DNA of 64,000 nucleotides, taken from the sequence record OP870147.1; one strand, written 5' to 3'. Made by a program: the position numbers and the translations under genes. Below the pieces are notes generated by a model that was given only the letters and a program-made list of their open reading frames with translations, ran no database searches and was not told where the DNA came from. The stretch comes from Escherichia phage vB_Eco_F31. Each line of letters begins with the position of its first letter. The first letter of the stretch is position 1. Below are positions 55,183 to 63,999 of this stretch, in pieces.

Positions 55183-58100
55183 ATGGCCGACATCAAACGT
55201 AAGTTCAGAGCCGAAGACGGTCTGGACGCCGGTGGCGACAAGATTGTTAACGTAGCATTAGCCGACCGTACAGTAGGTACTGATGGCGTAAACGTTGACT
55301 TCCTGGTACAAGAAAACACCGTTCAAGTATATGATTCTACGCGTGGATATAACAAAGGATTTGTTGTTCTTTATGACAACCGTTTATATCAAGCAATAAA
55401 TGATATCGTGTCTCCTTCCGGGGCATTTAACCTTTTACAATGGCGTGCAGTTCGTACTGATGCACAATGGATAACTGTCGCTTCTGGGACTTATCAACTT
55501 TCTTCAGGTGAATCTATTTCGGTTAACACTGGTGCCGGCAATGATATGGTTTTCACGTTGCCAAATACGCCGGTTGATGGTGATACTGTTGTTTTGGCTG
55601 ATATTGGTGGAAGAACCGGGACAGTTAAAGTACAGATTAACGCGTCTGTGCAGAGTATTTTAAACTTTAGAGGTGAACAAGTTCGTACAGTTTTAATGAC
55701 GCGCCCACGTTCACAACTATTGTTTGTGTTTAGTAATCGTTTGTGGCAGATGTATATTACCGATTATGGTAAAGAATCAATCACTGTTACACCTGCGTCA
55801 CCATATCAAGCACAAGCAAATGATTTTATCGTTCGTCGTTTTACTAGTGCAGCACCAATCAACATTACACTTCCACGTAATGCTAACAACGGTGATATAA
55901 TCCACCTAGTTGATTTAGATAAATTAAACCCACTGTATCATACAATTGTTAAAACATTTGATGATACAACGTCTATTGGTGAAGTCGGGACTCATATTGC
56001 CGAAGGCAGAAATGACTCTGACGCGTTTTTTGTTTTTGATGCTGCAAGTAGTTTATGGCGTATATGGGAAGGCGACCAGAAATCGCGTCTTCGTATTATC
56101 CGTGCGGATTCAAATATTCGTCCAAATGAAGAAGTTCTTATTTTTGGCACAAATAACGCTACAGCCGGAACTATTAATCTTACGCTGCCCACCGGAATTT
56201 TGAGTGGTGACACTGTTAAAATTTCAATGAACTACATGCGTAAAGGCCAAACAGTAAAAATTAAAGCTGCCGAAGGTGATACAATTGCTTCTTCTGTTGC
56301 ATTGCTTCAGTTCCCTAAACGTTCTGAATATCCACCTGATGCTCAATGGGTCTCTGTTACTGAACTAGAATTCAATGGCACTACTTCATATGTTCCTGTA
56401 TTAGAATTAGCGTATATCGAAGACACTGATTCTGACACTCACTATTGGGTTGTGCAACAGAATGTCCCTACAGTAGAACGTGTTGATGCCGGAACTGATG
56501 CTACACGAGCTCGTTTAGGTGTTATTGCTCTTGCTACTCAAGCGCAAGCAAATGCTGATTTAGAGAATACTCCAGCTAAAGAAGTGGCTATTACTCCTGA
56601 AACGTTGGCAAATCGTACAGCAACTGAAGCTCGACGTGGTATCGCTAAAATTGCTACAACAGCACAAGTTAACCAGAATTCCACTGCAGCATTTGTGGAT
56701 GATACTATTGTTACGCCTAAAAAATTAAATGAGCGTACAGCAACTGAAACTCGTCGTGGTCTTGCTGAAATTGCTACTCAGGCTGAAACTGATGCCGGTC
56801 TTGATGACACAACGATTATTACACCTAAGAAATTGCAGGCACGTCAGGGTTCTGAAACACTATCTGGTATAGTTAAATATGTATCAACTACTTCTGCTAC
56901 ACCTGCCGCGACTCGTGGAGCTGCAGGTACTAACGTTTATAATAAAACCGTAAATAATTTAACTATTTCTCCTAAAGCCCTTGACCAATATAAAGCAACT
57001 TATTCTCAACAAGGTGCAGTAATTTTAGCTGTTGATAGTGAAGTAATTGCCGGCCAATCTCAAGCAGGTTATTCTCACGCTGTAGTAACTCCTGAAACAC
57101 TACATAAGAAAACTTCCACAGATGGACGTATCGGTTTAATTGAAATTGCTACACAAGCAGAAACTAATGCTGGGACTGATTATACACGTGCAGTAACGCC
57201 TAAGACGTTAAATGATAGGAAAGCTACGGAAGGATTATCCGGCATAGCCGAACTTGCTACGCAAGTTGAATTTGATACTGGAACTGATGATACTCGTATC
57301 TCAACTCCACTGAAAATTAAAACTCATTTTGATTCTTCTGACCGTACCAGTGTTAATTCTGATTCCGGACTTATTGAAGAAGGAACCTTGTGGAACCATT
57401 ATACTCTTGATATTTCTAAAGCAAATGAAACACAACGTGGTACACTTCGAGTAGCGACTCAGACAGAATCTAATGCAGGAACTTTAGATGATGTTCTTAT
57501 TACTCCTAAAAAGCTTTTAGGGACTAAGTCAACTGAAACGTCTGAAGGCGTAATTAAGGTTGCTACTCGGGCCGAAACTGTAACAGGAACTTCTGCTAAT
57601 ACTGCTGTATCGCCTAAGAATTTAAAATGGATTGTCCAGAATGAACCAACATGGGCTGCTACTACGGCAATTCGTGGATTCGTTAAAACTTCATCTGGTT
57701 CAATTACATTCGTTGGTGACGATACTCAAGGTAGTACCCAGGATCTGAATCTTTACGAGAAAAATAGTTATGCTATTTCTCCATATGAATTAAACCGTGT
57801 ACTTGCTAACTATTTGCCATTAAAAGCAAAAGCTGCTGACGCAAATTTATTAGATGGCATAGATTCATCTCAGTTCATTCGTAGGGATATTGCACAGACG
57901 GTTAATGGTTCACTAACCTTAACGAAACAAACTAATCTGAGTGCCCCTCTTGTATCATCTAGTACTGCTACATTTGGTGGTTCAGTTTCGGCAAATAGTA
58001 CATTAACTATTTCTAATACTGGAACGGCAACTCGTCTGATTTTTGAGAAAGGACCTCAAACTGGAACTAACCCAGCGCAGACGATGTCTATCAGAGTTTG

Positions 58101-59058
58101 GGGAAATGAATTTGGTGGTGGTTCAGATACAACACGTTCTACTGTATTTGAAGTTGGTGATGAAACGTCTAATCATTTTTATTCTCAACGTAATAAAGAT
58201 GGGAATATAGCGTTTAGCATTAATGGTACTGTGATGCCAATAAACATTAATGCTTCCGGTTTGATGAATGTTAATGGCGTTGCAACATTTGGTCGTTCAG
58301 TTACTGCTAATGGCGAATTCATTAGTAAGTCTGCAAATGCTTTCAGAGCAATTAGTGGTGATTACGGATTCTTTATTCGTAATGACGCTGCTAATACCTA
58401 TTTTATGCTCACTGCATCAGGCGATCAGACCGGCGGATTTAACGGATTACGTCCTTTAGCTATTAATAATGCATCCGGCCAAGTAACGATTGGTGAAGGC
58501 TTAATCATTGCCAAAGGTGCTACTATAAATTCAGGTGGTTTGACTGTTAACTCGAGAATTCGTTCTCAGGGTAATAAAACATCTGATTTATATACCCTTG
58601 CGCCAACATCTGATACTGTAGGATTCTGGTCAATTGATATTAACGATTCAGCCACTTATAACCAGTTCCCAGGTTATTTTAAAATGGTTGAAAAAACTAA
58701 TGAAGTGACTGGGCTTCCATACTTAGAACGTGGCGAAGAAGTTAAATCTCCTGGTACATTGACTCAGTTTGGTAATACACTTGATTCACTTTACCAAGAT
58801 TGGATTACTTATCCAACAACTCCAGAAGCACGTACAACCCGTTGGACACGTACATGGCAGAAAACTAAAAATTCTTGGTCAAGTTTTGTTCAGGTATTTG
58901 ATGGTGGAAACCCTCCTCAACCTTCTGATATTGGTGCTTTACCTTCTGATAATGCAACAATCGGAAACTTGACAATAAGGGATTTCTTAAGGATTGGTAA
59001 TGTCCGCATTATTCCAGACCCTGTGAATAAATCTGTTAAATTCGAGTGGATTGAATAA
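55183..59058 (+). CDS. 34: long tail fibre proximal subunit gp34
   Basis: 1291 aa (T4 gp34 about 1289 aa); repeated T(E/D)xxxG(I/L)AxIATxA motifs; late promoter upstream. Confidence 0.9.
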   Translation: MADIKRKFRAEDGLDAGGDKIVNVALADRTVGTDGVNVDFLVQENTVQVYDSTRGYNKGFVVLYDNRLYQAINDIVSPSGAFNLLQWRAVRTDAQWITVASGTYQLSSGESISVNTGAGNDMVFTLPNTPVDGDTVVLADIGGRTGTVKVQINASVQSILNFRGEQVRTVLMTRPRSQLLFVFSNRLWQMYITDYGKESITVTPASPYQAQANDFIVRRFTSAAPINITLPRNANNGDIIHLVDLDKLNPLYHTIVKTFDDTTSIGEVGTHIAEGRNDSDAFFVFDAASSLWRIWEGDQKSRLRIIRADSNIRPNEEVLIFGTNNATAGTINLTLPTGILSGDTVKISMNYMRKGQTVKIKAAEGDTIASSVALLQFPKRSEYPPDAQWVSVTELEFNGTTSYVPVLELAYIEDTDSDTHYWVVQQNVPTVERVDAGTDATRARLGVIALATQAQANADLENTPAKEVAITPETLANRTATEARRGIAKIATTAQVNQNSTAAFVDDTIVTPKKLNERTATETRRGLAEIATQAETDAGLDDTTIITPKKLQARQGSETLSGIVKYVSTTSATPAATRGAAGTNVYNKTVNNLTISPKALDQYKATYSQQGAVILAVDSEVIAGQSQAGYSHAVVTPETLHKKTSTDGRIGLIEIATQAETNAGTDYTRAVTPKTLNDRKATEGLSGIAELATQVEFDTGTDDTRISTPLKIKTHFDSSDRTSVNSDSGLIEEGTLWNHYTLDISKANETQRGTLRVATQTESNAGTLDDVLITPKKLLGTKSTETSEGVIKVATRAETVTGTSANTAVSPKNLKWIVQNEPTWAATTAIRGFVKTSSGSITFVGDDTQGSTQDLNLYEKNSYAISPYELNRVLANYLPLKAKAADANLLDGIDSSQFIRRDIAQTVNGSLTLTKQTNLSAPLVSSSTATFGGSVSANSTLTISNTGTATRLIFEKGPQTGTNPAQTMSIRVWGNEFGGGSDTTRSTVFEVGDETSNHFYSQRNKDGNIAFSINGTVMPININASGLMNVNGVATFGRSVTANGEFISKSANAFRAISGDYGFFIRNDAANTYFMLTASGDQTGGFNGLRPLAINNASGQVTIGEGLIIAKGATINSGGLTVNSRIRSQGNKTSDLYTLAPTSDTVGFWSIDINDSATYNQFPGYFKMVEKTNEVTGLPYLERGEEVKSPGTLTQFGNTLDSLYQDWITYPTTPEARTTRWTRTWQKTKNSWSSFVQVFDGGNPPQPSDIGALPSDNATIGNLTIRDFLRIGNVRIIPDPVNKSVKFEWIE

Positions 59059-59066
59059 GAGGTATT

Positions 59067-60194
59067 ATGGAAAAATTTATGGCTAAGTTTAGACAAGGAT
59101 ACGTCCAAACGCCATTTTTATCGGAAAGCAATTCAGTACGATTTAAATTAAGCATAGCGGGCTCTTGTCCGCTATCAACATCTCCTACTTATATTAAGTT
59201 CCAAGATAATCCACTTGGTTCCCAGGTTTTTTCTGTTGGATTAAACGTTCGTGTAATAAATCCTACAACAGGTGCAGTAGTTGAATCTAAGTCATATAAT
59301 TTCTCTACTGAAAACGACGCCACGTCAAGTGCATTTGTTACTTTCATGGACACATATGCTTCAAATTTTATATTTGCTCTTGTTACTAACGCTAAAACAA
59401 ACTTTCCACCTGAAGTTCTTGCATGGTTTACTAAAGCTGGGAGTTCTGCTATTCCATTAGCTCAACAAGTTTTAAATATAGTGGACATTTCTTATTCGGC
59501 ATTTTATATTTCTGGTAAGAATGCTATAGCACTAGAACATATTAAGTATAGTAATAAGAAAACTTCAACCGACTATAGTACACCACTTGATGTTGTGTAC
59601 GACACGATCGATGATATTGGCGCTACTGGCTTCCCTAGACGTACGTATGAATCGTCAGACACATTTTTATCTGCTGTTGGAGGTACTAATAATGAAATTA
59701 AAAGGATGCCTACAACATCCATTATTACACCTCTCGCTGGGTATAAATTGAAGCCTGGAGATTTCCTTTATATGAAATTCCAACTAATGGCTGATGTCGA
59801 TTTGTTAGCACAAGGGACGACACGACTTTCTATTCGTTTCTTTAAATCTCCTTCTACTTCACCTATTTCATTTAAGGATATAAACTTTGATGGGGGCGCA
59901 GGTGAATGGAAGATATATGAAGACTACATAGAAATTCCTGCTGGTGCTGACGGGTTCACGATTTATTGTTATCGTACAGCTCCAGTCGGGCAAGGTGGAT
60001 TAAGAAACGTTATATTCACTGAAGTATCATGTAATGGAAGCGTTTCAAAACCTGCCGAGTTTGGTATAAATGGTATTCGTGTAAATTATGTTTCAGAATC
60101 TTTAAGTGCCCCAGACATAATGACATTACCTACTCAATCTTCAACCGATACTGGTAAGGTATTTGGTCAAGAATTTAAAGAAGCGTCAGAATAA
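59067..60194 (+). CDS. 35: long tail fibre hinge protein gp35
   Basis: 375 aa; synteny 34-35-36-37. Confidence 0.85.
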   Translation: MEKFMAKFRQGYVQTPFLSESNSVRFKLSIAGSCPLSTSPTYIKFQDNPLGSQVFSVGLNVRVINPTTGAVVESKSYNFSTENDATSSAFVTFMDTYASNFIFALVTNAKTNFPPEVLAWFTKAGSSAIPLAQQVLNIVDISYSAFYISGKNAIALEHIKYSNKKTSTDYSTPLDVVYDTIDDIGATGFPRRTYESSDTFLSAVGGTNNEIKRMPTTSIITPLAGYKLKPGDFLYMKFQLMADVDLLAQGTTRLSIRFFKSPSTSPISFKDINFDGGAGEWKIYEDYIEIPAGADGFTIYCYRTAPVGQGGLRNVIFTEVSCNGSVSKPAEFGINGIRVNYVSESLSAPDIMTLPTQSSTDTGKVFGQEFKEASE

Positions 60195-60256: not shown

Positions 60257-60922
60257 ATGGCCGATTTAAAAGCTGGTAGTACAACTGGCGGCGCTGTTAT
60301 ATGGCATCAAGGTAATTTCCCTTTAATGCCAGCAGGTGATGACGTCCTGTATAAAACGTTTAAACTCTATTCAGAATATAATAAACCACAAGCTGCTGAT
60401 AATGATTTCGTTTCTAAAGCTAATGGTGGTACTTACGCTTCAAAGGTAACATTTAACAGTGGCGTGCAAATACCATATGCTATAAACAATACAAACCAAA
60501 GCGGTATTTTTCCTGGTAACGGTGATGCAGCTACTTTTGTTACAGCAAATATTGATATTGTTTCATGGTACGGTATTGGTTTTAAATCATCACAAGGAAC
60601 AGCTGGTAGAACTGTAGTAATCAATACACGTAATGGTGATATTAATACAAAAGGCGTTGTATCTGCTTCAGGACAAGTAAGAAGCGATATGACTGCTCCG
60701 GTTGCAGCAAATGATCTCACAAGAAAAGATTATGTTGATGGAAGAATAAATATTGTTACGGATAACGCAAATTCCCGTGTATTGCGTAAAGGCGATACCA
60801 TGACTGGTACTTTAACAGCACCAAACTTTTTCTCACAGAATCCGGCGTCTGAGGCTAATCATGTTCCTCGTTTCGACCAGATTGTAATTAAAGATTCTGT
60901 TCAAGATTTCGGCTATTATTAA
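60257..60922 (+). CDS. 36: long tail fibre distal connector gp36
   Basis: 221 aa, same as T4 gp36; late promoter upstream. Confidence 0.85.
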
Positions 60923-60930
60923 GAGGACTT

Positions 60931-63900
60931 ATGGCTACATTAAAACAGATACAATTTAAAAGAAGCAAAGTAGCAGGAGTTAATCCTACTGCAGCACAAT
61001 TAGCCGAAGGCGAATTAGCGATAAACTTAAAAGATCGAACTCTTTTTACTAAAGATGACCTCGGTAATATTATTAGCCTAGGCTTTGCTAAGGGTGGGGA
61101 TATTAACGGTAATGTAACTCAAACTGGTGATTATTTACAAAACGGCACATATAATCTCAATGGAAATCAGTTTGTTTATGCAGGAAAATACATTGAATTT
61201 TTACCTAAAACCACTGGAAATGGCGCTTGGGCTAACCAACATTCGAATAAAGCCCCTATCTTTACAGATTTAAGTTCAACTACTTCTGTTTCAGAATACC
61301 ATCCACTGATTAAACAACGCTATAAAGATGGAACTTTTTCTGCTGGTACATTAGTAAACGAAGGTAGTTTTAAATTCCATTATATTGATGAAACCGGGAC
61401 TTCAAAATACTGGACTTTTAATCGAAACGGTAATTTTCAAGTTGATTCCGGAAGTTTATTAGTATCTAATGGATATTTAGTTACTCAAAGTAATATTGAA
61501 ACTAAAGCTGGTTCTTTAATTGGTCCTAAAGTTATTACCAAAAATATCAATGTGAGCACTAAATCTTGGGACACTAATATTGATACTGCATATGATTTAG
61601 TTTCATTACCGACTTGGCACTATACTCCAACCGAAACAGATTTGGATACTAATGGTATAAACTACCTTCGTAAATTCCGCGGACACGTTTCTTCTGCTAT
61701 TTTCCATGAAGTTGCTGATGCTCGTTCAGGTAAACCACAGAATATTTCGTATTGGACGGGACGTAATGCTGAAGTTTATCAATGGTCTTATACCACAGAT
61801 GGGCGTATGTCTGTTGCTAATTCGATAGGTATAGGTCTTGCTGATGTTGGTGACCAAGGACGTTATCCATTGGTTTCGTTTGGTAAAGGTATTGCAATTG
61901 GTGACAATGATACTGGTATTAAATGGGTTCGTGACGGGGTTATCGATTTAGTTGCGAATGGTATTTCTGCCGGCACTATTCTTAATAACGGTATTAACAG
62001 TACTAAAAAATTGATGGTTGGTTATAGTCGAGATTCTGGTTCTACTTGGGATTACCCAAATAACAACCAAGCAATGTTTACTGCGCGTACCGATGTTGAT
62101 GGTAATAATAACGGTGACGGTCAGACTCATATTGGTTATAGCAGCAATGCCAAGATGTATCACTATTTCCGTGGTACAGGTCGGATGTCCGTTAGTATGG
62201 GCGATGGACTTCTTGTTGAGCCTGGCATTTTAGATATTAAGACTGGTTCAAATTCGTTAAATTTGCGTGCTGATGGTACCATCGCTTCTGTTCAAACGTT
62301 AAAACTTAATAATGGATTATATTTTAATGGCGATGGAACTAATGCTTCTCTAGTTTTTAAAGCAGCTTCAGGTATTGATGGCACTAAGCAAATCATGTGG
62401 GAAGGCGGTACTCGAGCAGGTCAGAATAAGAGTTATGTAACGGCTAAAGCATGGGGTAATTCATTTAATGCCACTGGTGATAAATCTCGTGAAACTGTAT
62501 TTGAAGTTAGTGACGGGCATGGATACCATTTTTATTCTCAACGTGTAGCTCCTGCGCCTGGTTCTACCGTTGGACCTATTCAATTTCGAGTTAATGGTGG
62601 TTTATTAACTTCAGGTAGTATTGTTACTTCTGGTTCTATTACAACTGAATCTTCTTTAAGTGTTAATAATGGCATGTCAGTAAATGGACAAGCTAAATTC
62701 GGTGGAACAGCCGACGCATTAAGAATTTGGAACGCTGAATACGGCGCTATTTTCCGACGTTCAGAAACAAGTCTGTACATTATTCCGACTCCTAAAGATG
62801 CCGGTGAAAGTGGTGGAATAAGTAATCTTCGCCCGTTTTATATCAATTTAGGCGATGGCCAAGTTTCTATGGACCATGTAGTAGATATCGGCGGTGGTAG
62901 ATTTAAAGTAGATACAACCGGTACTACGGCTGGTCAACGCATAACAGTAAATATGGCATCAGATGCTATTAGAATAAATGCTCCAACACAAAAGTCTTCT
63001 AACTTCATTCAAGGACGTAAAGCAGATGTTCCGAAATGGTATTTAGGTATTGGCGATGGTGGCAACGTCGTTCGTATGCACAGCTACACATATTCACATG
63101 GTATTGCATTAAACTCTGATTCTGTCGATATTACTAAACCATTAAAAGTTGGAAATGCTCAATTCGGTACTGATGGTAACATCACTGGAGGCACTGGTAA
63201 CTTTGCTAACTTGAATACCACAATAAATAACCTTAAGACGGATATTGTCTCGAGTTACCCAATTGGTGCTCCGATTCCTTGGCCTACTGATACACCTCCT
63301 GAAGGTTATGCCATAATGGAAGGTCAAACATTTGATGCTGGCTTGTATCCTAAGTTAGCTGCGGTGTATCCTTCCGGCTCTCTGCCTGATATGCGTGGTC
63401 AAACTATCAAGGGTAAACCATCTGGGCGTGCTGTATTGAGTACAGAAGCAGACGGTGTTAAGTCACATAGCCATAGTGCAAGTGCATCAAGCACAGATTT
63501 GGGTACTAAGACCACGTCAAGTTTTGATTATGGTACTAAGACGACAAGTAGCTTCGACTATGGTACTAAGACCAGCAATACCACTGGTAATCATAACCAT
63601 ACAGTGAGTGGTAATACTGGTTCCGCTGGTGCGCACCAACACGCGCGTTCAGGCCCTCAGATACAAGGCGGCGTACCACAAGGCGGCGTACCCACTAGCA
63701 TATTCTATGATGGATACAATAGTGCGGGACCAAACGGCAACGCTAAAATCACTGGATCCGTGAGCGGTGCTCCTGCATCGTCGAATATGGCCAAAACTTC
63801 TTCAGACGGTGCCCACACCCATAGTTGGTCAGGAACTACTAGCGCTACGGGTAACCATGCTCATACTGTGGGTATCGGTGCCCATACACATACTGTAGGT

Positions 63901-63999
63901 ATTGGTGCCCACTCTCATTCGGTAGCGATTGGTTCCCATGGACATACAATAACTGTAAATGCCACAGGAAATACAGAAAATACTGTTAAAAACGTTGCT
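60931..63999 (+). CDS. 37: long tail fibre distal subunit gp37 (receptor-recognising), 3' end outside window
   Basis: ATG at 60931; N-terminus [13 protein letters not shown] as T4 gp37; frame open to window end (>1023 codons); His-x-His repeats near the end. Confidence 0.9.
63496..63960 (+). repeat. short tandem peptide repeats in gp37 distal region ([10 protein letters not shown] x3; H-x-H-(T/S)-V-(G/A)-I-G-(A/S) x3-4)
   Basis: Seen in translation: [28 protein letters not shown] and [30 protein letters not shown]. Confidence 0.6.

Follow-up and report, generated by a model that had tools for sequence, protein, structure and literature searches.

The closest described counterpart of the locus analysed here is the receptor-binding tip of the T4 long tail fibre protein gp37, for which a crystal structure is available (PDB 2XGF; Bartual et al. 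2010). The tip is a needle of six antiparallel strands, built by three chains and ending in a broader head (PMC9659904, PMC6957217), and therefore each chain runs out and back. The HxH motifs of the T4 needle coordinate iron, with seven axial iron atoms reported (PMC6957217), and the T4 sequence contains the same number of HxH motifs. The residues G938, T939, V941, G943, and K945 of T4 gp37 affect LPS or OmpC binding (PMC5221442, PMC6957217). Furthermore, T4 acquires a wider host range when part of the gp37 C-terminus is duplicated in tandem, according to the accounts of Tetart et al. 1996 given in PMC3157838 and PMC5221442. Many T-even phages rely on the T2/T6/S16 arrangement, in which gp38 is a separate adhesin; gp37 length varies widely, and the fibre genes of T-even phages are usually mosaic (PMC3157838). 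In phages MM02, KAW3E185, and WFbE185, seven to nine His-X-His repeats were described and a T4-like needle was predicted (Korf et al., PMC6563267).

The window, meaning the whole analysed stretch of 64,000 nt from Escherichia phage vB_Eco_F31 (OP870147.1), ends inside a long open reading frame that starts at ATG 60931 and runs uninterrupted to the edge. An earlier note, made from the sequence alone, had named this frame gp37 and counted 1023 open codons; translation and homology confirmed both points. The ORF matched the annotated distal subunit of the long tail fibre in 283 phage records, and MM02, KAW3E185, and WFbE185 were among the best matches. The fibre genes and the domains identified upstream of the needle were as follows.

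55183-59058, + strand: gene 34, 1291 aa, upstream of gene 37
59067-60194, + strand: gene 35, 375 aa, upstream of gene 37
60257-60922, + strand: gene 36, 221 aa, directly upstream of gene 37
60931..63999, + strand: gene 37, encoding the distal subunit of the long tail fibre; 1023 codons up to the window edge, which truncates the 3' end
62965..63189, + strand: gp37 trimerization region, aa 679-753 (Pfam PF20744, E = 2.5e-11)
63265..63408, + strand: phage tail collar domain, aa 779-826 (Pfam PF07484, E = 8e-11; alignment to 2XGF)

The gene order 34-35-36-37 is that of T4, and the three upstream proteins have the same lengths as those of DCP548 and nearly those of T4. The 21 kb upstream of gene 37 showed 96-98% identity to Mosigvirus-like coliphages, e.g. 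JK42, APCEc01, and KAW3E185 (about 97% over the 21 kb for phages such as APCEc01). Both Pfam scores exceeded the curated cut-offs, and the collar domain is the counterpart of T4 domain D10. The last 275 residues of the protein were aligned by phmmer to the T4 tip crystal 2XGF (T4 gp37 785-1026) with E = 8e-80, and this alignment spans residues 2-234 of the 242 in chain 2xgf_A. From its sequence, this ORF can be assigned to gene 37 of a T-even phage resembling Mosigvirus. We are highly confident in the overall reading that it encodes a T4-type gp37 receptor-binding tip with one extra needle layer and a T4-type end.

The window shares with the T4 tip the collar, the HxH needle, the head, the C-terminal sequence NTENTVKN(I/V)A, and the order of these motifs. 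Eight HxH motifs lie within aa 846-1005, three before the head domain and five after it, compared to seven motifs in T4. Their spacing is 39, 11, 57, 11, 6, 6, 6, compared to 29, 11, 34, 11, 6, 6 in T4. The features of the tip are listed below.

63466..63474, + strand: HxH motif 1 (HSH, aa 846-848), where the ascending needle strand begins
63502..63561, + strand: two full 10-aa GTK units, aa 858-877; T4 has one
63562..63591, + strand: degenerate third GTK unit, aa 878-887; the T4 equivalent is GTKGTNSTGG
63592..63642, + strand: HxH motifs 2 and 3 (HNH, aa 888-890; HQH, aa 902-904), 14-aa ascending unit
63643..63813, + strand: head domain at the distal tip, 57 aa separating HxH motifs 3 and 4 (aa 905-961)
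63663..63692, + strand: perfect 15-nt tandem duplication (ACAAGGCGGCGTACC twice), detected by TRF, in frame, giving QGGVP twice (aa 912-921)
63814..63864, + strand: HxH motifs 4 and 5 (HTH, aa 962-964; HAH, aa 976-978), 14-aa descending unit
63856..63936, + strand: three tandem 9-aa HxH(T/S)V(G/A)IG(A/S) units, aa 976-1002; T4 has two
63937..63945, + strand: HxH motif 8 (HGH, aa 1003-1005)
63970..63999, + strand: conserved 10-aa C-terminal motif ending in KNVA, followed in all relatives examined by (F/Y)NY(I/L)VR(L/A)A and a stop

Compared to T4 gp37, the window contains one more GTK unit and one more HxHTVGIGA unit. Both extra units appeared as clean gaps in T4, in the phmmer alignment to 2XGF and in a MAFFT alignment with T4 and three relatives, which bears out the earlier proposal of additional repeat units relative to T4. 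The proposed HxH(T/S)V(G/A)IG(A/S) repeats were likewise recovered as three tandem units; TRF reported a 27-nt period with 3.1 copies, and HGHTITV follows directly after the third unit. The GTK unit had been counted three times; two full copies stand, whereas the third keeps only GTKT. Outside the needle, the longer head domain (57 aa vs 34 aa) was essentially unalignable to T4 except for the glycine-rich apical loop, and the shaft was strongly divergent, with about 30-60% nucleotide identity over 61081-62726.

If the window protein folds as the T4 tip does, the three chains would pass through the collar into a long six-stranded needle, each extending as far as a small head domain and then returning. 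At each HxH motif, the three chains together would hold a single metal ion in the axis of the fibre. The earlier note had stated that HxH arrays coordinate iron in the T4 gp37 needle, as the literature confirms (PMC6957217), and by analogy eight metal ions are predicted here compared to seven in T4. The two extra units would form a matched pair, with the 10-aa GTK unit on the outgoing strand and the 9-aa HxHTVGIGA unit on the returning strand. This pair would add one layer to the needle and leave the fold unchanged. A structure prediction of the C-terminal region, as the earlier note had suggested, was made with AlphaFold2 as a monomer (aa 741-1023, alignment of 47 sequences), and its mean pLDDT of 52 and pTM of 0.19 were uninformative, as expected for an intertwined trimer.

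The pairing of units was compared across 135 distinct C-terminal tips by tabulating HxH spacing in the window and in sequences from 84 loci and 115 database proteins. Where the outgoing gap measured 29, 39, or 49 aa, there were 2, 3, or 4 returning 9-aa steps, respectively, in all tips except one; because the tips are related by descent, this covariation represents few independent gains or losses. The 14-aa units with an HxH motif likewise occurred in matched numbers, as 1+1, 2+2, or 3+3 (outgoing + returning). The joint gain or loss of the two repeat units in 134/135 tips fits the up-and-back hairpin of the 2XGF needle. The exception was a single natural tip, L006 (IMGVR_UViG_3300030021_000020), whose units are unmatched, and therefore strict pairing is not obligatory. 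From these sequence patterns, the needle seems to consist of stacked layers, each pairing an outgoing with a returning module, with one 10/9-aa layer more in the window than in T4.

The eight-HxH class was found in 47 of the 135 tips, as often as the seven-HxH, T4-like class (47), followed by the six-HxH class (38) and one ten-HxH tip. The repeat copy number varies between isolates, as had been supposed. A 701-nt tip query was covered to at least 80% by at least 82 phage records, of which the 40 listed were 89-95% identical to it. The same eight-HxH architecture with the same repeat counts was present in 308Ecol101PP, DCP548, SHSML-52-1, JS09, HX01, APCEc01, phiD1, MM02, KAW3E185, and WFbE185. 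Over the tip, Mosigvirus and T4-like coliphage relatives showed 89-95% nucleotide identity, and 308Ecol101PP showed 98% protein identity over the last 283 aa of the window. The eight-HxH architecture is thus a common variant that is already published for close relatives, and it is not unusual. The different tip architecture suggested in the earlier note is not supported; the predicted fold is the same with one needle layer added.

Over the C-terminal ~200 aa, the window is also homologous, with 55-65% identity, to the Stf-like side tail fibres of many prophages of E. coli and Shigella, lambdoid ones among them. In these tips the modular HxH needle recurs with 6, 7, 8, or 10 motifs, and FNYIVRLA again forms the end. 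They differ in that they belong to non-T4 phages and have unrelated N-terminal shafts and different head domains.

Gene 37 is, on nucleotide comparison, a recombinant mosaic. The segment 60931-62460 showed 90-100% identity to DCP548 and SHSML-52-1 (97-100% up to 62162), and the segment 62727-63609 showed 94-100% identity to 308Ecol101PP. For the junction of ~260 nt between them (62463-62726), no match in the collection exceeded 89% over the whole segment. No record in the phage collection was at least 99% identical over the entire gene 37.

To place the end of the gene, the C-terminal motif was compared with that of related loci. In 77/77 of these, a stop was located 8 residues past KN(V/I)A after the tail (F/Y)NY(I/L)VR(L/A)A; the 77 are loci whose tip ORF was identified independently of the C-terminus, and the other 7 loci, picked through that tail, are not independent. 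The MAFFT alignment placed FNYIVRLA and a stop after the KN(V/I)A motif in T4, DCP548, SHSML-52-1, and 308Ecol101PP. A search of the rest of the window for the C-terminal tail sequence gave no match with up to 3 mismatches allowed. Gene 37 is therefore predicted to lack only 8 codons and the stop at the window edge, with a full length of ~1031 aa, and its end would resemble TTTAACTATATCGTTCGTTTAGCATAA, which corresponds to FNYIVRLA and a stop. The T4 length of about 1026 aa given in the earlier note is exact (3081-nt CDS, 1026 aa), so the predicted protein is 5 aa longer, and it falls within the range of close relatives (1005 aa and 1038 aa). Because the relatives examined all stop 8 residues past KN(V/I)A, the fibre is predicted not to be meaningfully longer than that of T4, and the greater length that had been claimed is not upheld. 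A stop within a few codons, which the earlier note had named as evidence against its reading, is thus expected by inference from relatives, whereas an alignment lacking extra repeat units relative to T4, named alongside it, was not what we obtained.

Downstream of gene 37, the three nearest relatives examined encode first a tail fibre assembly protein of 183 aa and then the holin. The 183-aa protein of 308Ecol101PP showed 68% identity to the T4 gp38 chaperone. By this comparison, a T4-type gp38 chaperone gene, and not a gp38 adhesin gene, would be expected just downstream in the phage of the window. Its gp37 would be folded with that chaperone and would carry no gp38 adhesin cap.

The head domain is hypervariable among relatives, with 57 aa in the window, 52 aa in the nearest relatives, and 34 aa in T4. 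Within it lies the 15-nt tandem duplication, which the earlier note had missed. In 308Ecol101PP the flanks are identical for ~180 nt upstream (from the alignment start at 63480) and ~70 nt downstream, and the sole difference is the 15-nt insertion. Consistently, the 701 bases of the window aligned to 686 bases in each of the 40 best tip matches. The exact junction of the duplication gave 0 matches in IMG/VR, JGI metagenomes, and GTDB genomes, a search that variants with mismatches would escape. A 101-nt junction query was compared by blastn to 50,697 phage records, where the best match covered 86/101 and was identical except for the 15-nt gap, and the QGGVP duplication was present in none of the 120 best-matching proteins. 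Among the gp37 of Mosigvirus and T4-like coliphages compared, only that of the window carries the duplication, and it does so in a mosaic gene. The QGGVP duplication is the only new allele-level feature of the tip and, in the sequences searched, it is private to the window.

The duplicated residues fall in the stretch that is most divergent between close relatives (QGGVPTS / QAGIPNN / TAAWAND / SNGISTN), and phmmer aligned them opposite T4 W936-K945. By inference, the receptor would be bound by the hypervariable head domain (aa 905-961), and receptor specificity is more likely set by this domain, between HxH motifs 3 and 4, than by the repeat count. The loop with the duplication probably touches the host cell. 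Only five apical-loop residues are duplicated in the window, unlike in the T4 duplication mutants, where the repeated portion reportedly spans a larger segment bounded by His boxes. These mutants likewise carry an in-frame tandem duplication in the adhesin part of gp37, and, as cited in PMC3157838 and PMC5221442, they provide a precedent for host-range change (Tetart et al. 1996, J Mol Biol 258:726).

Two broader explanations of the tip were weighed against the T4-type reading, and we consider both very improbable. A fibre substantially longer than that of T4, with a different distal arrangement such as an extra domain or a T2/S16-type gp38 adhesin cap, would agree with the ORF being open at the window edge and with the wide length variation and frequent gp38 adhesins of T-even phages (PMC3157838). 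However, the sequence is T4-type to the last codon of the window, the independently identified loci all stop 8 codons on, and a T4-type gp38 chaperone lies downstream in relatives. Any extra length derived from the repeats is, moreover, offset elsewhere in the protein, and close relatives are both shorter and longer. The specific case of a T2/T6/S16-type gp37 capped by a ~260-aa gp38 adhesin was rejected on the C-terminus being T4-type up to the window edge and on the relatives' downstream protein being a chaperone, and the different adhesin arrangement suggested in the earlier note falls with it. The same low probability applies to the view that the extra repeat units are recent, isolate-specific products of slippage or recombination, that is, a fresh host-range duplication like those of Tetart et al. 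1996. The expansion of T4 host range by gp37 C-terminal duplications, as reported in the two citing papers, and the variation of copy number among natural tips would favour this view. However, the two GTK units and three 9-aa units are present together in the at least 82 phage records that cover the tip query, and the same counts recur in 47/135 distinct tips. The peptides of the two full GTK units are 100% identical, but 8/30 bases differ (direct count from the two sequences), all synonymously, including a TCA/AGT serine switch; the 27-nt units differ at about 23% of bases with the peptide conserved. Since the copies have diverged in bases while the peptide was kept, the duplications are old and, for the GTK units, under purifying selection rather than a fresh slippage tract. 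Fresh slippage was therefore refuted for both repeat families by the synonymous divergence and the wide sharing.

The 15-nt duplication is a separate matter from the T4-type reading of the tip, and its interpretation is more evenly balanced. The chance that it is a sequencing or assembly artefact, or neutral slippage with no effect on adsorption, comes close to even but stays short of it: the duplication was seen in the window only, and its copies are 100% identical, so it is either very recent or not real. Against this stand its being in frame, the exact match of its flanks to 308Ecol101PP on both sides, and the rarity with which short-read assemblers make perfect 15-nt tandem copies. Its position also argues against it, as the duplication sits in the segment most variable between close relatives and is aligned to the T4 stretch where point mutations change LPS/OmpC use. 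We tentatively propose that the duplication is a very recent host-range adaptation that enlarges the glycine-rich apical loop, a possibility that we rate as somewhat doubtful on present evidence. Separately and with the same reserve, the pairing of units might serve as a usable design rule for fibre-tip length.

The locus thus belongs to the common eight-HxH class of T4-type gp37 tips, and in this respect it has little importance beyond annotation. The needle is apparently assembled from units that match on its outgoing and returning strands, and its length would therefore change by whole layers, which could be of use in fibre engineering and in the typing of T-even phages. The private five-residue duplication, located in the loop that most likely contacts LPS or porin, is a candidate host-range determinant. 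If this is true, the QGGVP duplication would be a small equivalent, arisen in nature, of the gp37 duplications selected in the laboratory by Tetart et al. 1996.

The needle units in the tips of gp37 and of side tail fibre proteins from prophages were compared across 84 related loci (L001-L084) and 120 homologous database proteins (P0001-P0120). These units were gained and lost as matched pairs, one on the outgoing and one on the returning strand. Two pair types were found. In one, a 10-aa GTKxxSSFDY unit is matched by a 9-aa HxHTVxIGA unit; in the other, both partners are 14-aa HxH units. The tips fell into classes with 6, 7, 8, or 10 HxH motifs, and the window tip belongs to the eight-motif class. 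The matched-unit rule was kept in 134 of the 135 distinct tips. The sole exception was locus L006 (IMGVR_UViG_3300030021_000020, match 1501-2286), in which the [10 protein letters not shown]-type unit occurs twice on the outgoing strand and the returning strand has 9-aa units at the T4 number only.

The longest needle in the sample was that of P0078, with ten HxH motifs made up of three 14-aa units per strand and four 9-aa-spaced motifs. Several other tip homologues (P0046, P0053, P0055-P0059, and P0072) are listed at source under names like 'tail tape measure protein', 'short-chain fatty acid transporter', and 'terminase large subunit family protein', and some of them also match the Pfam families of those names. 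The probable explanation is misnaming, or gene calls in E. coli prophages that are fused or incomplete.

The head domain of the window gp37, located between the third and fourth HxH motifs, contains the following feature:

63663-63692, perfect in-frame 15-nt tandem duplication, which places two copies of QGGVP in the hypervariable apical loop

Because of this duplication, the head domain (57 aa) is the longest of the 135 distinct tips. The duplication had no match in the phage records, IMG/VR, JGI metagenomes, GTDB genomes, or 120 best proteins searched.

Gene 37 (60931-63999) is a recombinant mosaic. Its 5' half, up to approximately 62460, is nearly identical to the T4-like coliphages DCP548 and SHSML-52-1, and the segment at 62727-63609 is almost the same as in 308Ecol101PP. 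Between them lies a junction (62463-62726) that, across the segment, shares at most 89% identity with any phage record.
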